From Oscillospiraceae bacterium (GTDB lineage: Bacteria; Bacillota; Clostridia; Oscillospirales; Oscillospiraceae): a stretch of 64,000 nt of DNA. Location: assembly GCA_015067975.1 (NCBI GenBank), contig SVLK01000001.1, positions 21,513 through 85,512 of the forward strand, read 5' to 3'. The notes under the pieces are model-generated. The model was not told where the DNA came from, searched no databases, and saw nothing but the letters and a program-made list of their open reading frames with translations. Positions 50,342 through 59,467 of the stretch are shown one piece after another (the first letter of the stretch is position 1; every line of letters begins with the position of its first letter). A program made the position numbers and the translations under genes.

Positions 50342-51151
50342 TCAGTCGTCCTGCACTTCATCGGCGGGGTCGTAAATCATGGGAGCAATAATAAGTTCGG
50401 AGCCGAGACTGCGCAGGAATTCTTCATCCTCGGAAGAGAGACGTTCATCAACAACAATGGTGTCTACCTGCGAAATGGGATATACGTTGGAGAAAGCGCG
50501 GGTATGGAGTTTTTCGCTGCTGATGACTAGCACCAATTTCTCAGCGTGGCTATGGATCAAGGAACGGGAAAGGCCGAGATCATCATAGTCGGTGATATAG
50601 CCCTGCTGTGTATCCAGACCAGCACAACTGATAAAGGCGATATCTACATTGAAAAGGCTCAAATTGGAACTGGTGATTTTCCCATAGTAGGTGTATTCTT
50701 CGTGGCTAAGAGAACCGCCCAAAGAATATAGATTGACTTCCGTATCACTGAGTTCGTTGATGACCAACAGGGACGGGGTGACAACAGACAGATCGTGGAT
50801 GTCACGGACGTAGTGGGCCAGATGAGCCATGGTGCGGCCGCCGTCCAGCAGAATAGTGCTGCCGGAACGTACCAACTTGGCAGCGGCTTGTGCGGCGGCC
50901 AGATTCCCAGCGTGGAACTGTCGGCGGAATTTGGGTGTTGCACCGTGAATGGGCGAAGTGTTATCATCCTGCGGGATCAGAACAGCGCCGCCATGTACGC
51001 GCTTGGCTAAGCCGTTTTCCTGTAAAGTTTCCAGATCGCGTCTGGCGGTTTCGTGGGAAACATTGCATAACTGCATGACTTCGGAAACCTTAATGGTGCT
51101 TTTTTCAAGCAATACGCGAGCGATCAGATCATAACGTTCCTGTGCTAACAA
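50342..51151 (-). CDS. DeoR/GlpR-family transcriptional regulator
   Basis: ER..LI, VSHETARRDL..L...G...RVHGGA HTH, ILLDGG.T, DIAFISCAG; TTG start 51151 after AAGGAGGG. Confidence 0.93.
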   Translation of the reverse strand: MLAQERYDLIARVLLEKSTIKVSEVMQLCNVSHETARRDLETLQENGLAKRVHGGAVLIPQDDNTSPIHGATPKFRRQFHAGNLAAAQAAAKLVRSGSTILLDGGRTMAHLAHYVRDIHDLSVVTPSLLVINELSDTEVNLYSLGGSLSHEEYTYYGKITSSNLSLFNVDIAFISCAGLDTQQGYITDYDDLGLSRSLIHSHAEKLVLVISSEKLHTRAFSNVYPISQVDTIVVDERLSSEDEEFLRSLGSELIIAPMIYDPADEVQDD

Positions 51152-51583
51152 AATGCTCCCTCCTTGTGCGCAACGGGTGCGATGCAATTCTTACTTTAAC
51201 AATATAACACAAAAAAGAAAAAGTAAAGAAGAAAATGGGGAATTTTAACAAAAAAGCAAACCATGAGAAGAAAGCCGTGAGCGTTTTTGGGTATATAGCG
51301 GTGCAAAAACAAGCGAAAAATAAGAGAGAAGGTATTTGCTGCGGAAATACGTGCGAGTCTTGGCGCGAAAATGGCGGAAAAGCAAAAAAGTGCAATAATT
51401 GAGTTGACCTTTTTTGCGTTTTCGTGTATCATGTGGTTGTGAAATAATGGAATTATCAACATGGGTACGTATCCGCATTACCTGCGGCAATGACCTGTGA
51501 GACTTTGTTCGGAAAATATTGTCACCGGAAGTGAAAGTAGCCAGTGCGGCCGATTGCTGTGCACGTAGAAGGTGGAGAGAACA

Positions 51584-53053
51584 ATGAGCGGAACAGTTAA
51601 CTACATTTTGTCTTATGACGCGGGAACCAGCGGCATCAAGGCGGTTCTTGTGGGCACAGACGGCAGCATTTGTGCTTCGGCAACAGTGGGATATTCGCTG
51701 CTGCGGCCGCAAGACGGGTGGGCAGAGCAGATCCCTGCGGAATACTGGGACGCGGCGTGCCGCTCGGCACATGCGGTATTGGCACAGGGAAATGTGGCGG
51801 CCGAGCAGGTAATCGGCGTGATTTTCGCTACGCAGTGGAAGGGTATGATTCCGCTGGATGCGGAGGGAAACGTACTGCACAATAGTATTATCTGGATGGA
51901 TACCCGCGGCACGGCGGAAGCTGTGGAACTGGCTGAAAAAACGGGAATGGCCTGTGTTGCTAGAGATTATTGGCCGAGGATCCTCTGGTTTAAGAAGAAC
52001 TGTCCCGAGCAGTACGCGAAGACAGTTTGCTTCCTGGAGGCGAACAGTTATCTGAAATATCGGGCGACCGGCAGCAGGACCATTGACCAGAGCAATCATT
52101 TTACCCGCTCGCCGCTGCCTAAGGTGCAGGCCTTGTTTGATGCCATGCTGGCAGGCGGCGAGATCGCACCGGAATTGTTTCCACCCGTGGTGCAGGCTAC
52201 CGATGAGGTGGGGAGGCTGACGGCTGCAGCGGCGCAGGAGCTGGGACTGAAGGAAGGCACCCCAGTGTTTGGCGGGTTGTGTGATATTCCGGCGGTGACG
52301 ATCGGTGCCGGGGCCTGCGCGGTGGGTGCAGCCCATGTATATCTGGGAACATCCGGCTGGATCGGTGTGACACGTGCGGTCGGAGACGGTGCACCGCGGA
52401 TTCCGGTGGTGTTGTCGCAGGATCGCTGGGCCCATGTGGCCGGTATGCAATCAGCGTGCATGAGCTATGACTGGTGTCTGCGCACCTTTTACAAAGAAGA
52501 AATGGCACGGCTGGGCGATGGGATCTACGGGATGGTGGAAGAAGAGCTTTCGCAGATCCCGGCTGGATCCCTTGGCTTGACGGCACTGCCTTCGCTGAAT
52601 GGAGAAGGTGGGCCCTTTGCGCCTGCCATGCGGGCCGGATTTGTAGGCCTAACGGCTGCGCATGACAGACGCCATATGGTTAACGCGGTGCTGGAAGGTA
52701 TTTGCTGCATTTTACGTCTGCGGAAAGAAGCCATCGAAAAGAGTGTGGGTAAGCCGATTACCTGTATTCGTGTGGTGGGAGGCGGTGCCGGAAGTCCGCA
52801 CTGGATGCAGATGCTGGCCGATGTGCTGCGTGTGGAAGTGATCGTGCCGGAAAATGCCCGCTATGCCGGCGCATTGGGTGCGGCCTACTGTGCCATGATC
52901 GGCTTAGGCTTGTGCGAAAATCTGGAAGAGTGCGCGGAGCGTGCACGGATCAAAGCAAGATATATACCGCGTGACGATGCTGCGGATGTGTATGACAGGC
53001 AGTGGCCTCGCTTCTGGAAAGCGGCGCAGCTGTTGGGAGATGTTGACGCGTAA
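51584..53053 (+). CDS. FGGY-family carbohydrate kinase (xylulokinase-like, divergent)
   Basis: YDAGTSGIKA, WAEQ.P, IIWMDTR, YLGTSGW, AVLEG, VGGGA.S..WMQMLADV. Confidence 0.9.
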   Translation: MSGTVNYILSYDAGTSGIKAVLVGTDGSICASATVGYSLLRPQDGWAEQIPAEYWDAACRSAHAVLAQGNVAAEQVIGVIFATQWKGMIPLDAEGNVLHNSIIWMDTRGTAEAVELAEKTGMACVARDYWPRILWFKKNCPEQYAKTVCFLEANSYLKYRATGSRTIDQSNHFTRSPLPKVQALFDAMLAGGEIAPELFPPVVQATDEVGRLTAAAAQELGLKEGTPVFGGLCDIPAVTIGAGACAVGAAHVYLGTSGWIGVTRAVGDGAPRIPVVLSQDRWAHVAGMQSACMSYDWCLRTFYKEEMARLGDGIYGMVEEELSQIPAGSLGLTALPSLNGEGGPFAPAMRAGFVGLTAAHDRRHMVNAVLEGICCILRLRKEAIEKSVGKPITCIRVVGGGAGSPHWMQMLADVLRVEVIVPENARYAGALGAAYCAMIGLGLCENLEECAERARIKARYIPRDDAADVYDRQWPRFWKAAQLLGDVDA

Positions 53054-53108: not shown

Positions 53109-54584
53109 ATGAGAGTATTTGTGTGTGAGTTTTCGCAGGAGACGAATTCGTTTTGTCCTGTCATTTCTACTCGTGAAGATTTCGGCGAGTGGGATGGCGG
53201 AGGCACCAAGAAAGAAGTACATGGCTTTATCGATGTGATGCTGGAGAACGGCTTTGAAGTGATCCGTGGCCCCATGTACCGTGCACAGGCATCCGGTCCT
53301 GTGAAGCAGGAAGTGGTGGATCAGTTCCTTGAAGAATCCATCCAGCAGCTCAGAGAGATCGGCAAGGCGGACGCTGTTTGCGTAGAGCTGCACGGTTCTA
53401 CCCAGTCTACCGAGAGCGACAATGTGTGCGGTGATATCGTATCTGCGCTGCGTGAAGCGGCGGGCGGTGTGCCTGTGGCAGCCAGCTGCGATCTGCATGC
53501 CAACATCACAAAGAAGCTTTACGAGAACGCTGATTTCATCAGCTCCTATCAGACCTATCCCCACCGTGACGCTTACGAGACCGGTCGCCGCTCTGCAGAA
53601 CTGTGCGTGCGCAAGCTGAAGGGCGAAGCCGTCTTTTCCGCATGTGTCAAGGTGCCGATGATCGTTCCTGCCAGCGGTTACACCACCGAGGGCGGTGCTT
53701 TTGGCGAGGTGGTCAAAAAGGCCCGTGCACTGGTGGCAGAGGGCAAGATCTTTGATTACAGTCTTTGCGTTGTGCAGCCTTGGCTGGATGTGTACGAGTG
53801 CGACTCTGCCGTGCTGGTATATGCAGCAGATCAGGAAGTGGCCGTGCAGTGCGCACAGGAACTGGGACAGGGTATGGCCGCATGCTGCGATGACATGCAT
53901 CCGCAGGTATCCACGGTGGATGAGATCATCGAGCGTGCCCGTGCAAAGAAGGAAGACAAGCCGGTGATCGTGTCCGACTTCTCCGACTCCCCCAATGCCG
54001 GTGCTGCCGGTGACAATGTGGACATTCTGGCAGGCCTGTTGGAGCGCGGCAGCGATCTGAAGGGAGCCGTGATCGTCAATGATGTACTGGCTACCGATGC
54101 TGCCTTTGCCTGCGGCGTGGGCGGTACGGCGAAATTCCGCATCGGCGGTACGCTGGCACCCCATTATTCCAAGCCGGTAGAGGTGGAGGGAACGGTTCGC
54201 TCCCTGCACGACGGCAAGTATGTGCTGGGCGGCCCCATGATGCGCGGTGTGGAAGTGGATGTCGGCCGCGCTGCAGTGATCACTGTGGGCAAGGTGGATG
54301 TGCTCTTGTGCCATGCCATGTGCATCACCGGCGATATCCAGTTGTACCGTCATTTCGGCATTGAGCCTGCCTTCTATCAGGTGGTAGTAGTCAAGGCCAA
54401 TACATCTTTTAAGGCCGTATATTCTGTCGTTTCGGAAGATATCGTATCCTGTGATACGGGTTGTGCCTCTACGGCGGATCTGGCAAGCCTGCCTTGGAAG
54501 CATCTGCCGAAGGAGGGAATGTATCCCTTTATTTCCCTTACAAATTATTGCGCAAAAGACCATACGCTGCAGCGCAGCCTGTAA
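53109..54584 (+). CDS. M81-family (MlrC-like) metallo-amidohydrolase, paralog 2
   Basis: QETNSF, LHGS, ASCDLHANI, YQTYPHRD, QPWLDV, SDSPNAGAAGD, GIEP. Confidence 0.9.
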   Translation: MRVFVCEFSQETNSFCPVISTREDFGEWDGGGTKKEVHGFIDVMLENGFEVIRGPMYRAQASGPVKQEVVDQFLEESIQQLREIGKADAVCVELHGSTQSTESDNVCGDIVSALREAAGGVPVAASCDLHANITKKLYENADFISSYQTYPHRDAYETGRRSAELCVRKLKGEAVFSACVKVPMIVPASGYTTEGGAFGEVVKKARALVAEGKIFDYSLCVVQPWLDVYECDSAVLVYAADQEVAVQCAQELGQGMAACCDDMHPQVSTVDEIIERARAKKEDKPVIVSDFSDSPNAGAAGDNVDILAGLLERGSDLKGAVIVNDVLATDAAFACGVGGTAKFRIGGTLAPHYSKPVEVEGTVRSLHDGKYVLGGPMMRGVEVDVGRAAVITVGKVDVLLCHAMCITGDIQLYRHFGIEPAFYQVVVVKANTSFKAVYSVVSEDIVSCDTGCASTADLASLPWKHLPKEGMYPFISLTNYCAKDHTLQRSL

Positions 54585-54800
54585 TATACAAAAAAGCATC
54601 GATACAGCAATAGACTGAGGGCGACCGTAATACATGCCGCGCAGCAGCATAGCACCTATGAAAGATGCGTGACATACCTGCCGCGGCGGCAAAATGAAAT
54701 TGAGCAGCCCCAGTCTGCGCTGAATGTGCAGTCTGGGGCTGTTATTGTTGCAACACAACTGCAGACCGGCCGGAATGGAGCCGGAGAAAAGGAGAAAGAA

Positions 54801-55850
54801 ATGAACTATTTACAGTGGCTGACCCAAAATACCCCTACCCGGTTCTGGCATGATTCGGCGATTCCTTCCGAAATCGATGCCGCCATCGAGAATGGCGCCA
54901 TGGGCGTGACCACCAACCCCGTACTGACCTATAAGACGCTGCAGGCCGTGCCGGAGTTCTGGCAGCCTCAGGTGGATAAGATCGACAAGGACCTGACTCC
55001 TGCAGAGCACGCTGAGGCACTGCTGCAGATGGTGGCTACCTATGCCGCCGATAAGTTCCGCCCCGTGTTTGAAAAGACCAACGGCCAGCACGGTTACGCA
55101 CTGGGCCAGCTGGATCCCTCCATCTGCATGGACAGTGAGAAGATGTTGGCACAGGGTCTGCGCTATGCTTCCTGGGCAGACAATATCTCCGTGAAGACTC
55201 CATCCATCATGTCGGCACTGCCGCTGGTGGAAGAGCTGGCTTCCCGCGGTATCGCCGTGTGCACCACGCTGAACTTCTCTGTGTCTCAGGCGATGGCGGT
55301 GTGCGAGGCCTACATGCGCGGCCGCGCCAAGGCGGAGGCAGCCGGTATCCAGCCCAAGCCCATTTTCGTGGTGCAGCAGGGCGGCCGTCTGGACGAGTAT
55401 TTGCTGGAGTGCGCTACCGACAACCGCATTGATATCGATCCCGAGATCATCCGCAATGCAGGCAACGCGGTGTGCAAGAAGGTGTACAGCCTGCTGAAGG
55501 AGCGGAACATTCCTGCGGTGGTGATGCCTGCGGGCCTTCGCGGCGTACATCACCTGACCTCTATGGCCGGTGCCGATATGACGTTCTCTCTGCAGGCCCG
55601 TATCCAGCAGATGACCATCGAGGCAGATCCGGAGCGCGTGTGCCACATTGATGACGAAATCCCCGCCGAGGTGATCCGGAAGCTGTACAAGCTGCCGGAG
55701 TTCGTGCGTGCCTATGAAGAGGGCGCACTGAAGCCGGAGGAGTTCATCACCTTCGGTGTGACGCAGAAGACCATGTCCCAGTTCCTGTGGACCGGCTGGG
55801 TCCCGCTGGAGACGTACCAGAAGGCACCTGCCGGTGCCCGCTGGTTCTAA
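54801..55850 (+). CDS. Transaldolase-family protein with non-canonical active site
   Basis: FWHDS, GVTTNP, Schiff-base VKTP, TLNFSVSQ, GRLD; ATG 54801 with AAGGAG RBS. Confidence 0.85.
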   Translation: MNYLQWLTQNTPTRFWHDSAIPSEIDAAIENGAMGVTTNPVLTYKTLQAVPEFWQPQVDKIDKDLTPAEHAEALLQMVATYAADKFRPVFEKTNGQHGYALGQLDPSICMDSEKMLAQGLRYASWADNISVKTPSIMSALPLVEELASRGIAVCTTLNFSVSQAMAVCEAYMRGRAKAEAAGIQPKPIFVVQQGGRLDEYLLECATDNRIDIDPEIIRNAGNAVCKKVYSLLKERNIPAVVMPAGLRGVHHLTSMAGADMTFSLQARIQQMTIEADPERVCHIDDEIPAEVIRKLYKLPEFVRAYEEGALKPEEFITFGVTQKTMSQFLWTGWVPLETYQKAPAGARWF

Positions 55851-55869
55851 GAATGGGGAGGAAATAGAC

Positions 55870-56607
55870 ATGTTGAAGGGTAAACAGGCTTTGATCACCG
55901 GCGGTGCCGGTGAAATGGCATCCACTATCGCGGCAACGTTGGCAAAGCAAGGTGCAGCCATTATTTTGGTGGATCTGAACGCAGAGGCACTGGAGACGGT
56001 GAAAGCGGATCTGGTAGAGCGCTTTGGCGTACCGGTGCATACCTATGTACACAATTTGTGCGATTTTGACGGTCTGGCAGAGATGGTAGACACCATGGAG
56101 CGTGAATGCGGTGCCATTGATATTCTGGTGAATGTGGCCGGTATTACTAATACCATCACTTACCGTGATATTACGCCGGCCGATTGGGACAAAATGATGA
56201 GCATTAATCTGAAGGCACCTTTCTTCCTGACTCGGGAACTGTTCTTCCGTATGGAAGAGCGCGGTTTCGGTCGTATCGTAACACTGGGTTCCATTTCCGG
56301 TGAGCGCGGCGCCAAGTATGCAGGCCCCCACTACTCCATTTCCAAAGCGGGCCTGATCTGCTTTACCAAGGTGCTGGCCAAGCTGGCCGGTGACAGTGGA
56401 GTGACGGCCAATACGGTGTCTCCTGGCATCATTGCTTCCCGTATGACCGATAGTCTGGGCTCTCAGGTGTATTCTTACGATGTGCCCATGAACCGCATGG
56501 GTACACCGCAGGAAGTAGCGGATGCAGTACTGTATCTGGTATCTCCGCTGGCCAACTATGTAACGGGACAGAATCTGAGTGTCAACGGCGGCCAGTCCAT
56601 GCGCTAA
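55870..56607 (+). CDS. Short-chain dehydrogenase/reductase (classical SDR)
   Basis: TGGAGEMA, DILVNVAG, S...YSISK, NTVSPG, PMNRMGTPQEVA, VTGQ...VNGG. Confidence 0.92.
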   Translation: MLKGKQALITGGAGEMASTIAATLAKQGAAIILVDLNAEALETVKADLVERFGVPVHTYVHNLCDFDGLAEMVDTMERECGAIDILVNVAGITNTITYRDITPADWDKMMSINLKAPFFLTRELFFRMEERGFGRIVTLGSISGERGAKYAGPHYSISKAGLICFTKVLAKLAGDSGVTANTVSPGIIASRMTDSLGSQVYSYDVPMNRMGTPQEVADAVLYLVSPLANYVTGQNLSVNGGQSMR

Positions 56608-56619
56608 GACGAAGAAATA

Positions 56620-57650
56620 ATGAAAGGCGTTGTTAAATACGAATTGGGGATGCACGGTGTGGAGCTTCGTGAACTGCCGGAGCCTGCCCCGAAAGAAGGC
56701 GAATGCAAAGTCAAGGTGCTGGCGGCGGGCATCTGCGGCAGCGATATCCATGCGCTGAAGGATGAGCGTTCCGTCACGATGCCTGTGGTGCTGGGTCACG
56801 AGTATGTGGGACAAATCGTAGAAACCTGTGGTGATATTGGCGATCTGCAGGTAGGCGACTGGGTCACCACGCTGCCGGCCTGCTATAGCTGCGGTACATG
56901 TGAACTTTGTCGCGCCGGTGTGGTGACACTATGCCGGCAGCGCAAGTCTATCGGCTCCCACAGAGACGGTGCGATGGCAGATTATGTGGTGGTGCCGGCG
57001 GTGTATACCTATCGCATTCCCAAAGCAGCCGACACGACCGAAAAAAAGATTGCTTATGCGTTGGCGGAGCCGTTGGCCTGCGTGGTGCGAGGCGTCTATG
57101 AGCGCATTGACGTCAAGCCGGGCGATACGGTAGTGGTCAGTGGCCCTGGTGTGATGGGCCAGATGGCAGCACAGGTGTTCAAGTCCCGTGGCGCCTATGT
57201 AATCTTGTCCGGTCTGCTGGAAGATCGTAAGAAACTGGAACTGGCCAAAGAATTGGACGCGGCCGATGCAACGGTGTGCAGTACGGAAGAACTGCGCCAA
57301 GCCGTGTATAGCCGCAATCCCCTTGGGGCAGATATTACTTGCGATTGCACCGGAGTGGTGCATTCCCTGGAAACCTGCGTGGACGTGATCCGCCCTATGG
57401 GAACGCACTTGCAGCTGGGGATGTTCGGCGGCAAAGTGCCCGTCCGGATGGACAGCTTTTTTGACAAGGAAGTGACCTATGTACCCAGCAACTCCAGCAG
57501 CGTAACGGCGTGGAAGACCACCATGGGCTGCTGGAGGGCGGTATTTCGCTGGAACCGTTCGTTTCCATGCAGTTGCCGCTGCAGGAGTGGAGAACGGCAT
57601 TTGACGCCGTGATTGACAAAAGGGTGTACAAAGCAGTGCTGTTGCCGTAA
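56620..57650 (+). pseudogene. Zn-dependent polyol/sugar dehydrogenase (MDR) with an apparent 1-nt frameshift near 57525-57527
   Basis: GICGSD, GHE, C-C-C-C structural Zn site, EPLAC, GPGVMG; the normal MDR C-terminus LLEGGISLEPFVS...AFDAVIDKRVYKAVLLP* lies in the -1 frame and ends at TAA 57648-57650. Confidence 0.8.
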
Positions 57651-57685: not shown

Positions 57686-58054
57686 ATGGAAATTATTGAG
57701 AGAAGGTCTGTGCCTGAGCAGATGCTGCCCGGCCGTTTTATGCAGAAGTTGGTGGGGAAGAAGGAGGATGGTTATCTCTCCGATAGCCGCATCCTGAACA
57801 TCGGCTACTGCCGCTACTGCGCGGAGGCAGGTCCCATGGAGCCTCACATGCACGCCGAGGAGACGGTGCAGGTCCTTGCCAGTGACCGCGCCTGGGTGCG
57901 TTTCGGCCCTGACAAGGATGACCTGCCCCACAAGGTGATGCTGCAACCCAACATGACGCTGCACATTCCTGCCGGTGAATGGCATGTGTTTGAGTACGCG
58001 GAGGGTGGTTCGCTGGAGATTCTCTTCATCTACGGCGCACAGGTACAGTTGTAA
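57686..58054 (+). CDS. Cupin-domain protein
   Basis: PHMHAEE and HIPAGEWHVF metal-binding cupin motifs. Confidence 0.85.
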   Translation: MEIIERRSVPEQMLPGRFMQKLVGKKEDGYLSDSRILNIGYCRYCAEAGPMEPHMHAEETVQVLASDRAWVRFGPDKDDLPHKVMLQPNMTLHIPAGEWHVFEYAEGGSLEILFIYGAQVQL

Positions 58055-58092
58055 GGGTCAAAGTGCTTCCCGGGAAGCAAAAGGAGAATGGA

Positions 58093-59412
58093 ATGAAAGA
58101 AAAAATCATCGTCCTGTCCATGGATGCCATGGTAGGCGAAGACATTGAATACTTAAAAACAAAACCCAACTTTGCACGACTTTTTGAAAAACGTGTGCAG
58201 GTGGGGAAGATGTGTACGGTCTATCCCAGCATCACTTATCCCGCCCATGTCAGCATGATGACCGGCTGCCGTCCGGGAAAGCACGGTATCATCACCAACG
58301 GAAAGTTCAAGACCACACTGGGCAAAGTGGACTGGCATCTGTACAACCATGAGCTGCTGGTAGAGGACGTTTTTGCGGCGGCCAAGCGCGCCGGTTGCAC
58401 CACAGCTTCCGTGTACTGGCCTGTGACGGGCTGCAATCCCAATGTGGACTATCTGATCAATGAGTTTTTCTTCTACGACAACGAGCCGATCGAGGAGACG
58501 TTTGCCGCCATGGGTACCAATGAGGCAACCATGGAGATCGTGCGGGAGAACATGGGTCGCTGGCCCACGGAGCCCGGCGGCAGCGGAAACAGACTGTATC
58601 TGCACAACTCCTTCGACTCCTTCATTGTCGGCTGTATGTGCAGCCTGATCCGCAAACATCAGCCCGATCTGCTGCTGGCCCACAACTGTTGGTTCGACGC
58701 CCTGCGCCACCGCAACGGTGTGTTCGGTGAACTGGTGCACGAGGGGCTGGATCAGATGGATCTGTGGCTGGGTGAACTGATCGAAGCACTGGAAGATGCC
58801 GGGATCTATGAGCAGACCAACTTTTTGCTGGTCAGTGACCATGGTCAGCGGGATTTTGTCCGCCGCATCAAGGTCAACACGCTGCTGCGCCGCGGCGGCT
58901 TTGTGGATGCCAACCAGGACGAGGTGCTGGATTGGCGAGCCTACGGACAGTCCAACGGTATGTCGGCCACCATTTTCCTGAAGGATCCCGATGACAAGGA
59001 ACTGTGGCAGCAAGTATATGACTACCTGCAGGGGCTGGCTGCCGACGGTGTCTGGGGGTTCAACAAGGTATATACCGAGGCTGAAGCACGGGAGCGCTAC
59101 GGCATGTACGGCGATTTTGCCTTTATGCTGGAGTCTGACGGCTACACCTCTTTTGCCGAGTCGTGGAGAGAGCCGGTGATCCATCCGGTGGATCTGACGG
59201 ACTACCGTTTGGGTAAGGCGACCCACGGCTACGAGCCGGAGAAGGGTGCCCAGCCTGTGTTTGTGGCCCGCGGACCTGCGTTCCGCGACGGCGCCTATAT
59301 CGAAAACGCACGGGTGATCGATGAAGCGCCCACTGTTGCCAGAATTCTGGGACAGACCATGCCGCAGGCAGAAGGCCGTGTGCTGGAAGAGCTGCTGGCA
59401 GAAGGCCGATAA
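58093..59412 (+). CDS. Alkaline-phosphatase superfamily nucleotide pyrophosphatase/phosphodiesterase (NPP type), cytoplasmic
   Basis: VLSMDA, YPSITYPAH (Thr nucleophile), DALRH, VSDHG, ATHGY; no signal peptide; ATG 58093. Confidence 0.92.
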   Translation: MKEKIIVLSMDAMVGEDIEYLKTKPNFARLFEKRVQVGKMCTVYPSITYPAHVSMMTGCRPGKHGIITNGKFKTTLGKVDWHLYNHELLVEDVFAAAKRAGCTTASVYWPVTGCNPNVDYLINEFFFYDNEPIEETFAAMGTNEATMEIVRENMGRWPTEPGGSGNRLYLHNSFDSFIVGCMCSLIRKHQPDLLLAHNCWFDALRHRNGVFGELVHEGLDQMDLWLGELIEALEDAGIYEQTNFLLVSDHGQRDFVRRIKVNTLLRRGGFVDANQDEVLDWRAYGQSNGMSATIFLKDPDDKELWQQVYDYLQGLAADGVWGFNKVYTEAEARERYGMYGDFAFMLESDGYTSFAESWREPVIHPVDLTDYRLGKATHGYEPEKGAQPVFVARGPAFRDGAYIENARVIDEAPTVARILGQTMPQAEGRVLEELLAEGR

Positions 59413-59418
59413 AAAGTC

Positions 59419-59459
59419 AAAAAAAGAAAGGGTTCGCACTGCGAACCCTTTCTTTTTTT
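59419..59459. terminator. Bidirectional terminator
   Basis: AAAAAAGAAAGGGTTCGC-ACT-GCGAACCCTTTCTTTTTT. Confidence 0.85.
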
Positions 59460-59467
59460 GTATCGAT

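Follow-up and report, generated by a model that had tools for sequence, protein, structure and literature searches.

A conserved Gln–Gln variant of the transaldolase and fructose-6-phosphate aldolase superfamily, and its putative role as a ketol aldolase

Enzymes of the transaldolase (TAL) and fructose-6-phosphate aldolase (FSA) superfamily are heavily used in biocatalysis. One residue pair, either Glu plus Phe or Gln plus Tyr, decides whether a member performs transferase or lyase chemistry, and to our knowledge all relatives that have been studied carry Glu or Tyr at the positions where the proteins described here have Gln. In FSA, three residues (Q59-T109-Y131) hold the catalytic water, and protons are shuttled mainly by Tyr131 (PMC13259622). 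Stellmacher et al. 2015, as cited in that paper (PMC13259622), report that swapping these residues interconverts both activities. Another member, the 6-deoxy-6-sulfofructose transaldolase SF-TAL (SftT), yields an aldehyde that is either reduced by a reductase of the beta-hydroxyacid-dehydrogenase type or oxidised by an aldehyde dehydrogenase (ALDH) (PMC11659671). Here, we analyse a TAL_FSA-type gene at positions 54801..55850 (+ strand) of a 64,000-nucleotide stretch of the genome of an Oscillospiraceae bacterium (assembly GCA_015067975.1, contig SVLK01000001.1, positions 21,513 to 85,512; this whole stretch is hereafter the window). Its product, P0001, has Gln at both positions and groups with a clade (the QQ clade) that is, judging from sequence comparisons, a distinct, widespread, uncharacterised and conserved variant inside the known TAL_FSA superfamily. 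We propose that P0001 is a catalytically competent class-I (Lys Schiff-base) enzyme, either a ketol aldolase or a transaldolase, whose substrates are ketoses made by dehydrogenases and bearing an anionic tail, and assign this proposal a probability of roughly 0.55.

The gene is intact, with an ATG at 54801, a TAA at 55848-55850 and 349 codons for amino acids. Its start codon is fixed because more than 120 homologues (70-92% identity) start at the same Met and are 348-349 amino acids long. A strong Shine-Dalgarno motif read from the sequence (AAGGAG, 54788..54793, + strand) lies 7 nt 5' of the ATG. An antisense open reading frame at 54810-55961 (- strand) was considered and rejected as a composition artefact; a composition-scored gene caller did not pick it.

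To place the protein within the superfamily, we combined profile searches with a structural model. The Pfam family TAL_FSA (PF00923) matches it with 95.4 bits, against a gathering cut-off of 27, over residues 15-263 (profile positions 1-225 of 285). The NCBIfam transaldolase and FSA models all score far under their cut-offs (PRK03343, the best, 80.2 versus 367; tal_mycobact 50.5 versus 233.75; talAB TIGR00874 30.8 versus 396.2; FSA TIGR00875 33.4 versus 245.95). In sequence sources and the ESM Atlas, it currently carries no name beyond "putative transaldolase" or "transaldolase family protein". An AlphaFold2 model, computed from an alignment of 96 sequences, reached a mean predicted local distance difference test score of 96.9. 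It has the triose-phosphate isomerase (TIM)-barrel transaldolase fold, and its Schiff-base Lys, K132, sits on the fourth strand (residues 129-134). Structural comparison with VIA-align, with which Foldseek concurs, establishes the fold: the Z score is 37.4 for Neisseria gonorrhoeae Tal (7bbw, 3clm; root-mean-square deviation 2.2 Å over 317-318 residues, 19-20% identity), 36.0 over 327 residues for Corynebacterium glutamicum Tal (3r5e), about 31.5 for Escherichia coli TalB and 20.6 over 195 residues for FSA. The model thus presents P0001 as a predicted long-form transaldolase-fold protein that is distant from every solved structure.

By sequence, too, P0001 matches no PDB entries better than the Tal proteins of N. 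gonorrhoeae and C. glutamicum (E 2.6e-13 and ~6e-12, respectively). They share with P0001 the fold, the size, the Schiff-base Lys, the Asp, Asn and Thr of the active site and both Arg. They differ in the low identity given above, in having Glu where P0001 has Gln103, and at the Phe position, which is Gln in P0001; the related NCBIfam models give P0001 only 50-80 bits where 234-367 are required. In the phmmer alignments to 3clm and 3r5e, Q103 falls directly beneath the Glu at the end of their strand (IEVD and LEVS).

Residue equivalences were derived by hhalign, comparing the family profile with TalB and FsaA of E. coli K-12, and independently by MAFFT --add, which also spans the N-terminus. 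The two maps are identical, and we treat the equivalences as established. Identical counterparts in the TIM barrel of TalB (EC 2.2.1.2) exist for D18 (WHD18S; TalB D17, FSA D6), N39 (TTN39P; TalB N35, FSA N28), the Schiff-base K132 (VK132TP; TalB K132, FSA K85), T156 (TalB T156, FSA T109) and the two phosphate-binding Arg, R196 (TalB R181, FSA R134) and R247 (TalB R228, FSA K168). The positions that differ from TalB are Q103 (LGQ103LD; TalB E96, FSA Q59), C154 (VC154TT156L; TalB N154, FSA L107), V191 (V191-Q192-Q193-G-G-R196; TalB S176, FSA A129), Q192 (TalB P177, FSA P130), Q193 (TalB F178, FSA Y131) and G245 (AG245LR247; TalB S226, FSA S166). Five of 11 TalB active-site residues are altered (E96Q, N154C, S176V, F178Q and S226G). 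P0001 therefore has the equivalents of Asp17, Asn35 and Thr156 expected of a classical transaldolase but lacks those of Glu96, Phe178, Asn154 and Ser176.

TalB Asn154 and Ser176 bind the C1 hydroxyl of the donor, as described for the TalB-dihydroxyacetone complex. In FSA, Ala129 is part of the donor pocket, and A129S is an improved variant with dihydroxyacetone as donor (PMC13259622). Compared with FsaA, P0001 shares the Gln (Q59, our Q103), the Thr (Thr109, our T156), one Arg (Arg134, our R196) and a non-polar donor pocket (L107/A129 versus C154/V191). It differs in having Gln193 for Tyr131 and an Arg for K168, and its 349 amino acids contrast with the short form of FSA, of about 220 amino acids, which assembles into a decamer.

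The original prediction, made by eye from these motifs, had held that the protein fits neither the Glu plus Phe nor the Gln plus Tyr pattern. Every motif that it quoted is present and rightly aligned to TalB and FSA, and both alignments, together with the low NCBIfam scores, bear out the mismatch with either pattern. Its further statement that the enzyme lacks both canonical acid-base residues goes too far. The ionisable partner (Glu or Tyr131) is indeed gone, but Gln103 is the state found in FSA, and the Asp (TalB Asp17), Thr156 and Asn39 are kept.

To assess how far this pattern extends, we searched for relatives in two ways. A profile-free exhaustive search returned 628 representative clusters at E <= 1e-10, and a pattern search over one genome per species returned 524 relatives. 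Eighty loci were fetched, and the 78 with a TAL-like gene were analysed. The tree of the 110 TAL-like genes in these loci splits cleanly into the QQ clade (n=75, including the window gene) and a second clade, the M clade (n=35), which has V-[ILVM]-M at positions 191-193 and T, V or A at 154. In the QQ clade, D18, N39, Q103, K132, C154, T156, V191, R196 and R247 are each conserved in 75/75 members, and 59 of 340 columns are invariant overall, the active-site equivalents among them. Positions 192-193 defined the QQ group and were not counted as independent conservation. The conservation is established, and because it holds in all 75 members down to a minimum pairwise identity of 45%, the Gln pattern is neither chance nor a sequencing error.

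The clade sits in a broad branch of proteins of about 345 amino acids. Across 82 full-length representatives of this branch (26-44% identity), Gln103 is present in 81, K132 in all 82 and T156 in 79. Other positions vary: 193 is M, I, L, Q, F or V, 196 is Arg in 50 and Ile in 23, and 18 is Asp in 53 and Asn in 28. Most carriers are Clostridia from animal guts, Oscillospiraceae among them, and further ones belong to Treponema, other Spirochaetales, Chloroflexia, Planctomycetota and Lachnospiraceae. With relatives in more than 500 species genomes and Gln plus Gln conserved, the division into Glu plus Phe and Gln plus Tyr types appears incomplete, and Gln plus Gln offers a natural third solution for study or engineering. 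Our literature search found no paper on the QQ clade, on a Gln/Gln enzyme of the transaldolase family or on a fructuronate/5-ketogluconate aldolase.

In the proposed mechanism, the carbonyl at C2 of a 2-ketose would react with K132 to give the Schiff base. Like Asp17 and Asn35 of TalB, D18 and N39 would bind the C3/C4 hydroxyls and remove a proton, so that the C3-C4 bond is cleaved. Q103, T156 and Q193 would occupy the positions that hold the catalytic water (Q59-T109-Y131 in FSA, E96-T156 in TalB). Since none of the three can ionise, we infer that protons are relayed by water, by D18 or by an acid group of the substrate itself. R196 and R247 would bind the anionic tail of the substrate, which in sugar acids is a carboxylate, and C154 and V191 would form a less polar, FSA-like donor pocket. 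The ketose produced by a neighbouring dehydrogenase, either a short-chain dehydrogenase/reductase (SDR) or a zinc-dependent alcohol dehydrogenase (Zn-ADH), would be cleaved, or its C3 ketol unit transferred, to give an aldehyde together with dihydroxyacetone or hydroxyacetone as the C3 ketol. The donor pocket is hydrophobic, like that of FSA, and a hydroxyacetone-type (1-deoxy) donor is therefore possible.

The resemblance to FSA also raises the question of whether P0001 is simply an FSA-type aldolase for fructose 6-phosphate or a 1-deoxy analogue, with free dihydroxyacetone or hydroxyacetone and glyceraldehyde 3-phosphate as partners. Such an enzyme could assimilate dihydroxyacetone after polyol oxidation, or act on a deoxy-ketose phosphate derived from a glycyl-radical dehydratase. 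Gln103 is the FSA state, and C154 and V191 are nearer to L107 and A129 of FSA than to N154 and S176 of TalB. The window operon includes an FGGY kinase, and no Dak1-type dihydroxyacetone kinase was found in the window genome, which is 84% complete. At one locus (L001:5710-11047), a 76%-identical orthologue follows genes for a glycyl-radical enzyme, its activase and a pyrroline-5-carboxylate-reductase-like protein, with a sugar ABC importer ahead; in E. coli, fsaA likewise adjoins the glycyl-radical pair ybiW/ybiY (L013). However, Tyr131, the dominant proton shuttle of FSA, is Gln in P0001 and in 75/75 clade members. Glycyl-radical neighbours are rare and absent from the recurrent gene clusters of the 78 loci. 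The FSA model TIGR00875 gives 33 bits against a cut-off of 246, and the long architecture (Z 37 with long transaldolases, 20.6 with FSA) does not match a 220-aa decamer. We consider this explanation unlikely.

The gene neighbourhoods were established by calling genes in the 78 loci, clustering their products by BLASTP and annotating cluster representatives with Pfam and NCBIfam. Dehydrogenases are the most constant partners of the QQ genes: an SDR or Zn-ADH gene is adjacent at 40/75 loci and lies within six genes at 63/75. Other recurrent neighbours are an M-type paralogue in tandem (31/75), a tartronate-semialdehyde reductase or an ALDH of the methylmalonate-semialdehyde dehydrogenase type (26/75), a GntR/FCD regulator (18/75), an IolO-like AP_endonuc_2 protein (16/75), a TRAP transporter (10/75), E1/E2/E3 components of the 2-oxoacid/acetoin-dehydrogenase type (9/75) and an FGGY or PfkB sugar kinase (6/75). 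Three gene orders recur, namely SDR - AP_endonuc_2 - TAL(M) - TAL(QQ) - reductase, ALDH - TAL(M) - TAL(QQ) - ZnADH, and TAL(QQ) - (SDR) - ZnADH - small cupin.

Several of these partners could be named with some precision. The neighbouring reductase passes equivalog cut-offs for 2-hydroxy-3-oxopropionate reductase (420.7 versus 397 and 384.6 versus 340.75) but falls below that for sulfolactaldehyde reductase (194.7 versus 348). The neighbouring ALDH passes the cut-off for the coenzyme A (CoA)-acylating methylmalonate/malonate-semialdehyde dehydrogenase (543.6 versus 448.5), and the AP_endonuc_2 protein is closest to the 5-keto-L-gluconate epimerase IolO, at 217.7 bits and hence below its cut-off of 300. 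Further markers of sugar-acid metabolism each occur at single loci: the tagaturonate epimerase UxaE (546 bits, directly after TAL-ZnADH-cupin), SGL lactonases, 2-keto-3-deoxy-6-phosphogluconate aldolase with PfkB, FucU, RhaM and a glycerate kinase of the DUF4147/MOFRL type.

This arrangement recalls SF-TAL (8bc2-8bc4), a TAL_FSA enzyme that acts on a non-phosphorylated anionic ketose, as the same alternative of a reductase or an ALDH follows the QQ/M gene pairs. SF-TAL differs in being a short-form decamer, which P0001 matches with a Z score of about 22 over 197 residues, and the reductase at the QQ loci fits tartronate-semialdehyde reductase better than sulfolactaldehyde reductase. No sulfoquinovosidase or sulfoquinovose isomerase was noted at the loci examined, where sulfoquinovose-specific genes were not searched systematically.

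From these neighbourhoods we infer the substrate. In many relatives, the most likely aldehyde product is a 3-oxopropanoate, either malonate or tartronate semialdehyde. This would imply as substrate an unphosphorylated hex-5-ulosonate, a 2-ketose with a carboxylate at its far end; examples are D-fructuronate, 5-keto-D-gluconate and 5-dehydro-2-deoxygluconate. Retro-aldol cleavage of, or ketol transfer from, a hex-5-ulosonate would be the simplest chemistry linking the partners, because enzymes for 3-oxopropanoates come after the TAL step, polyol, aldose or aldonate dehydrogenases and keto-acid epimerases come before it, and kinases are rare. By Fischer-projection reasoning, C3 and C4 of D-fructuronate and 5-keto-D-gluconate are in the D-threo configuration, the one that enzymes of the superfamily cleave. 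For most relatives, the context thus points to carboxylated, non-phosphorylated ketoses as substrates. The window enzyme may instead use a ketose phosphate, as an FGGY kinase is encoded two genes upstream and the window operon has no enzyme for tartronate or malonate semialdehyde. The original prediction had also proposed a different substrate, and this part is favoured by a context that points away from the pentose-phosphate pair. Its examples, an amino-, deoxy- or branched ketose phosphate, gained nothing specific from the analysis: kinases occur at 6/75 loci and sugar-acid partners are recurrent.

Extending the proposal to a pathway, the QQ enzymes and their tandem M partners might together carry out kinase-free splitting of sugar acids. 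Oxidation by SDR or Zn-ADH and epimerisation of the IolO/UxaE type would be followed by Schiff-base cleavage to a C3 ketol and tartronate or malonate semialdehyde, with the substrate carboxylate possibly aiding the proton relay. We regard this scheme as tentative and clearly less probable than the enzyme activity itself. If the context is read correctly, sugar acids and polyols would be used by unrecognised, phosphorylation-independent routes in spirochaetes, in Clostridia of the gut and rumen and in other organisms. If the kinase-free scheme is also true, the active site would work without the Glu or Tyr thought to be obligatory as the acid-base catalyst of the superfamily.

The tandem arrangement itself admits a different explanation, in which the QQ protein is one subunit of a hetero-oligomer with its M-type paralogue, or the two catalyse consecutive half-reactions, and the QQ protein alone is inactive or regulatory. 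The paralogues found at 31/75 loci (for instance, L068:8941-11050, L015:4218-6312, L052:10001-12112 and 28 more) are 35-45% identical to their QQ partners and usually lie directly 5' on the same strand, or downstream in a few loci. Both retain K132, D18, N39, T156, R196 and R247, so that each has the full catalytic set, which speaks against this explanation. The paralogue is, moreover, lacking at 44/75 loci, and the window genome (84% complete) has no second PF00923 gene. A requirement for a partner is, in our judgement, quite improbable.

Whether the gene serves as a housekeeping transaldolase can be judged from its occurrence in genomes. In the window genome (1.87 Mb), it is the sole PF00923 match, and this is what would be expected if it were the ordinary pentose-phosphate transaldolase (sedoheptulose 7-phosphate + glyceraldehyde 3-phosphate = erythrose 4-phosphate + fructose 6-phosphate) with a different proton relay. 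In agreement with such a role, it retains both phosphate-binding Arg and the Asp, Asn and Thr, five other carrier genomes have no canonical high-scoring Tal, and in one genome an 82%-identical orthologue follows gap and pgk (L006). However, any PF00923 match is missing from 54 of the 61 genera sampled in the same family, and the lineage thus has no need of such a gene. Canonical forms, at 201-263 bits, occur in 6 of the 61 genera, and within the whole sample the divergent type occurs in the window genome alone. The five other carriers have 1-7 divergent copies each (83-145 bits, with partial coverage of the profile), none of them in the canonical score range. Such a distribution fits an accessory catabolic enzyme rich in paralogues rather than a housekeeping transaldolase. 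The placement beside dehydrogenase, transporter and regulator genes in catabolic operons (63/75), the changes at 5/11 TalB active-site residues and the failure of all equivalog models to reach their cut-offs speak in the same direction. An ordinary transaldolase is an improbable identity for P0001, a little more so than an FSA-type aldolase.

Some neighbourhoods include genes other than the sugar-acid markers. At six loci from Clostridia, the order is TAL-ZnADH-E1a-E1b-E2-E3, and genes of the clade or the broad branch lie beside or within such acetoin-dehydrogenase-like operons, and also beside genes for thiolases, a CoA-transferase and 3-hydroxyacyl-CoA dehydrogenases. In our literature search, we found no paper on a TAL gene within acetoin-dehydrogenase-like operons. 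These loci, and the loss of the usual acid-base residue, would suit an enzyme that uses the Lys Schiff base not for aldol chemistry but, for example, to decarboxylate or isomerise a small beta-keto or alpha-hydroxy-keto compound in acetoin or acetoacetate metabolism. The residues that bind sugar hydroxyls (D18, N39 and T156) and both anion-binding Arg are nevertheless invariant, and markers of sugars and sugar acids dominate the neighbourhoods as a whole. Of all the explanations considered, this one seems to us the most remote.

A broad-branch member is found in a similar setting on plasmid p1 of Shinella sp. H4-D48 (L097:6804-12890). There, the TAL gene is inserted after the gene for E1-beta and before that for E2 in the cluster for an acetoin-dehydrogenase-like complex, which is followed by lpdA and by genes for a phosphoglycolate phosphatase, a TIM-barrel protein and triose-phosphate isomerase. 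Another branch member, beside an iol cluster on a Clavibacter plasmid, was considered as a replacement for IolC/IolJ in inositol catabolism. This candidate was rejected, as iolC and an aldolase are present as well.

Although the conserved active site and the dehydrogenase neighbours favour a ketol aldolase or transaldolase for dehydrogenase-made ketoses, several points weigh against this proposal. Loss of Glu or Tyr cripples catalysis in TalB and FSA (engineered variants 4rz5, 4rz6, 4rxg and 4xz9), and by analogy a Gln/Gln site may be slow or of different chemistry. The neighbourhoods are heterogeneous, including the acetoin-dehydrogenase-like E1/E2/E3, thiolase, CoA-transferase and 3-hydroxyacyl-CoA dehydrogenase genes just described, and no single substrate explains all loci. 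The window operon lacks a tartronate- or malonate-semialdehyde enzyme and instead encodes phosphodiesterases together with a kinase and an M81 protein. Finally, the 78 loci come from related and mostly uncultured genomes, so that their counts are not independent, and their genes were called with a custom caller.

The operon of the window gene begins with the FGGY kinase gene (51572..53053, + strand), whose XylB-like product scores 268 bits, below the cut-off of 380, and which is preceded by a promoter-like site at 51404-51432. It is followed by a gene of the M81 family (DUF1485 + MlrC_C by Pfam and NCBIfam; 53109..54584, + strand) and, after a gap, by the TAL gene. Immediately 3' of the TAL gene is an SDR oxidoreductase gene (55870..56607, + strand), the commonest type of neighbour in the clade. 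Next come a gene for a zinc-dependent alcohol or polyol dehydrogenase (56620..57612, + strand; best NCBIfam models Tdh, IolM and IdnD, all below cut-off), a gene for a 122-aa protein that we call cupinB (57686..58054, + strand) and, as the last gene, a member of the type I phosphodiesterase/nucleotide pyrophosphatase family (58063..59412, + strand). A strong bidirectional terminator-like hairpin follows at 59418-59460. CupinB itself matches no Pfam or NCBIfam model; its homologues number only 47, and we call it cupin-like because a few of them match Cupin_2. A DeoR-family regulator gene (50342..51187, - strand) is divergent from the operon, and an ABC importer, a PHP-like protein, a DUF624 protein and a GDPD protein are also encoded upstream.

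The 216-nt gap between the M81 and TAL genes (54585-54800) folds at -75.3 kcal/mol (z = -4.4 against shuffled sequences). It contains a strong 17-bp hairpin followed by a T-rich run (54703..54743, + strand), within which a terminator-like site was predicted at 54728-54742. This hairpin may be an attenuator, an internal terminator that splits the operon, or a processing site. Across the operon as a whole, terminator-like sites are at chance level (11 versus 8.3 +/- 3.1), and an Rfam search of the gap gave no match.

In the closest relatives, only TAL, (SDR), ZnADH and cupinB are retained, in differing operons. At one locus (L020), TAL and cupinB lie within an operon of thiolase, CoA-transferase, 3-hydroxyacyl-CoA-dehydrogenase, ZnADH and UxaE genes. 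The window's own genome has an operon syntenic with it (L104, contig C42:63000-82000; about 72-92% amino acid identity) that comprises two ABC ATPases, three thiolases, CoA-transferase III, an SDR, two 3-hydroxyacyl-CoA dehydrogenases, a Zn-ADH and UxaE, and lacks TAL and cupinB. Given the differing operons and the presence or absence of TAL-cupinB in otherwise syntenic ones, the window TAL gene appears to be part of a small mobile module.

The broad branch also includes proteins that depart from the window protein more strongly. A third sub-branch (P0173, P0244, P0188 and P0263) has Asn18, Ile196 and T-H-I at positions 191-193, and roughly one in three of the 82 broad-branch representatives has Asn18. 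As the catalytic Asp and one Arg are both gone, the Asn18/Ile196 proteins may have a different function, not the usual aldolase kind. Domain fusions were found in sub-branches other than QQ, namely TAL with AP_endonuc_2 (P0176) and TAL with a C-terminal Cupin_2 (P0173 and P0244). Above a length of 611 amino acids, the only fusion that our search returned was a canonical one of transaldolase with phosphoglucose isomerase. In addition, a 495-aa metagenomic protein (P0131) combines an N-terminal Peptidase_M24 fragment with a TAL domain; it is either a real fusion or a gene-calling artefact, and we note it beside the M81 peptidase-family gene that lies directly 5' of the window TAL gene.

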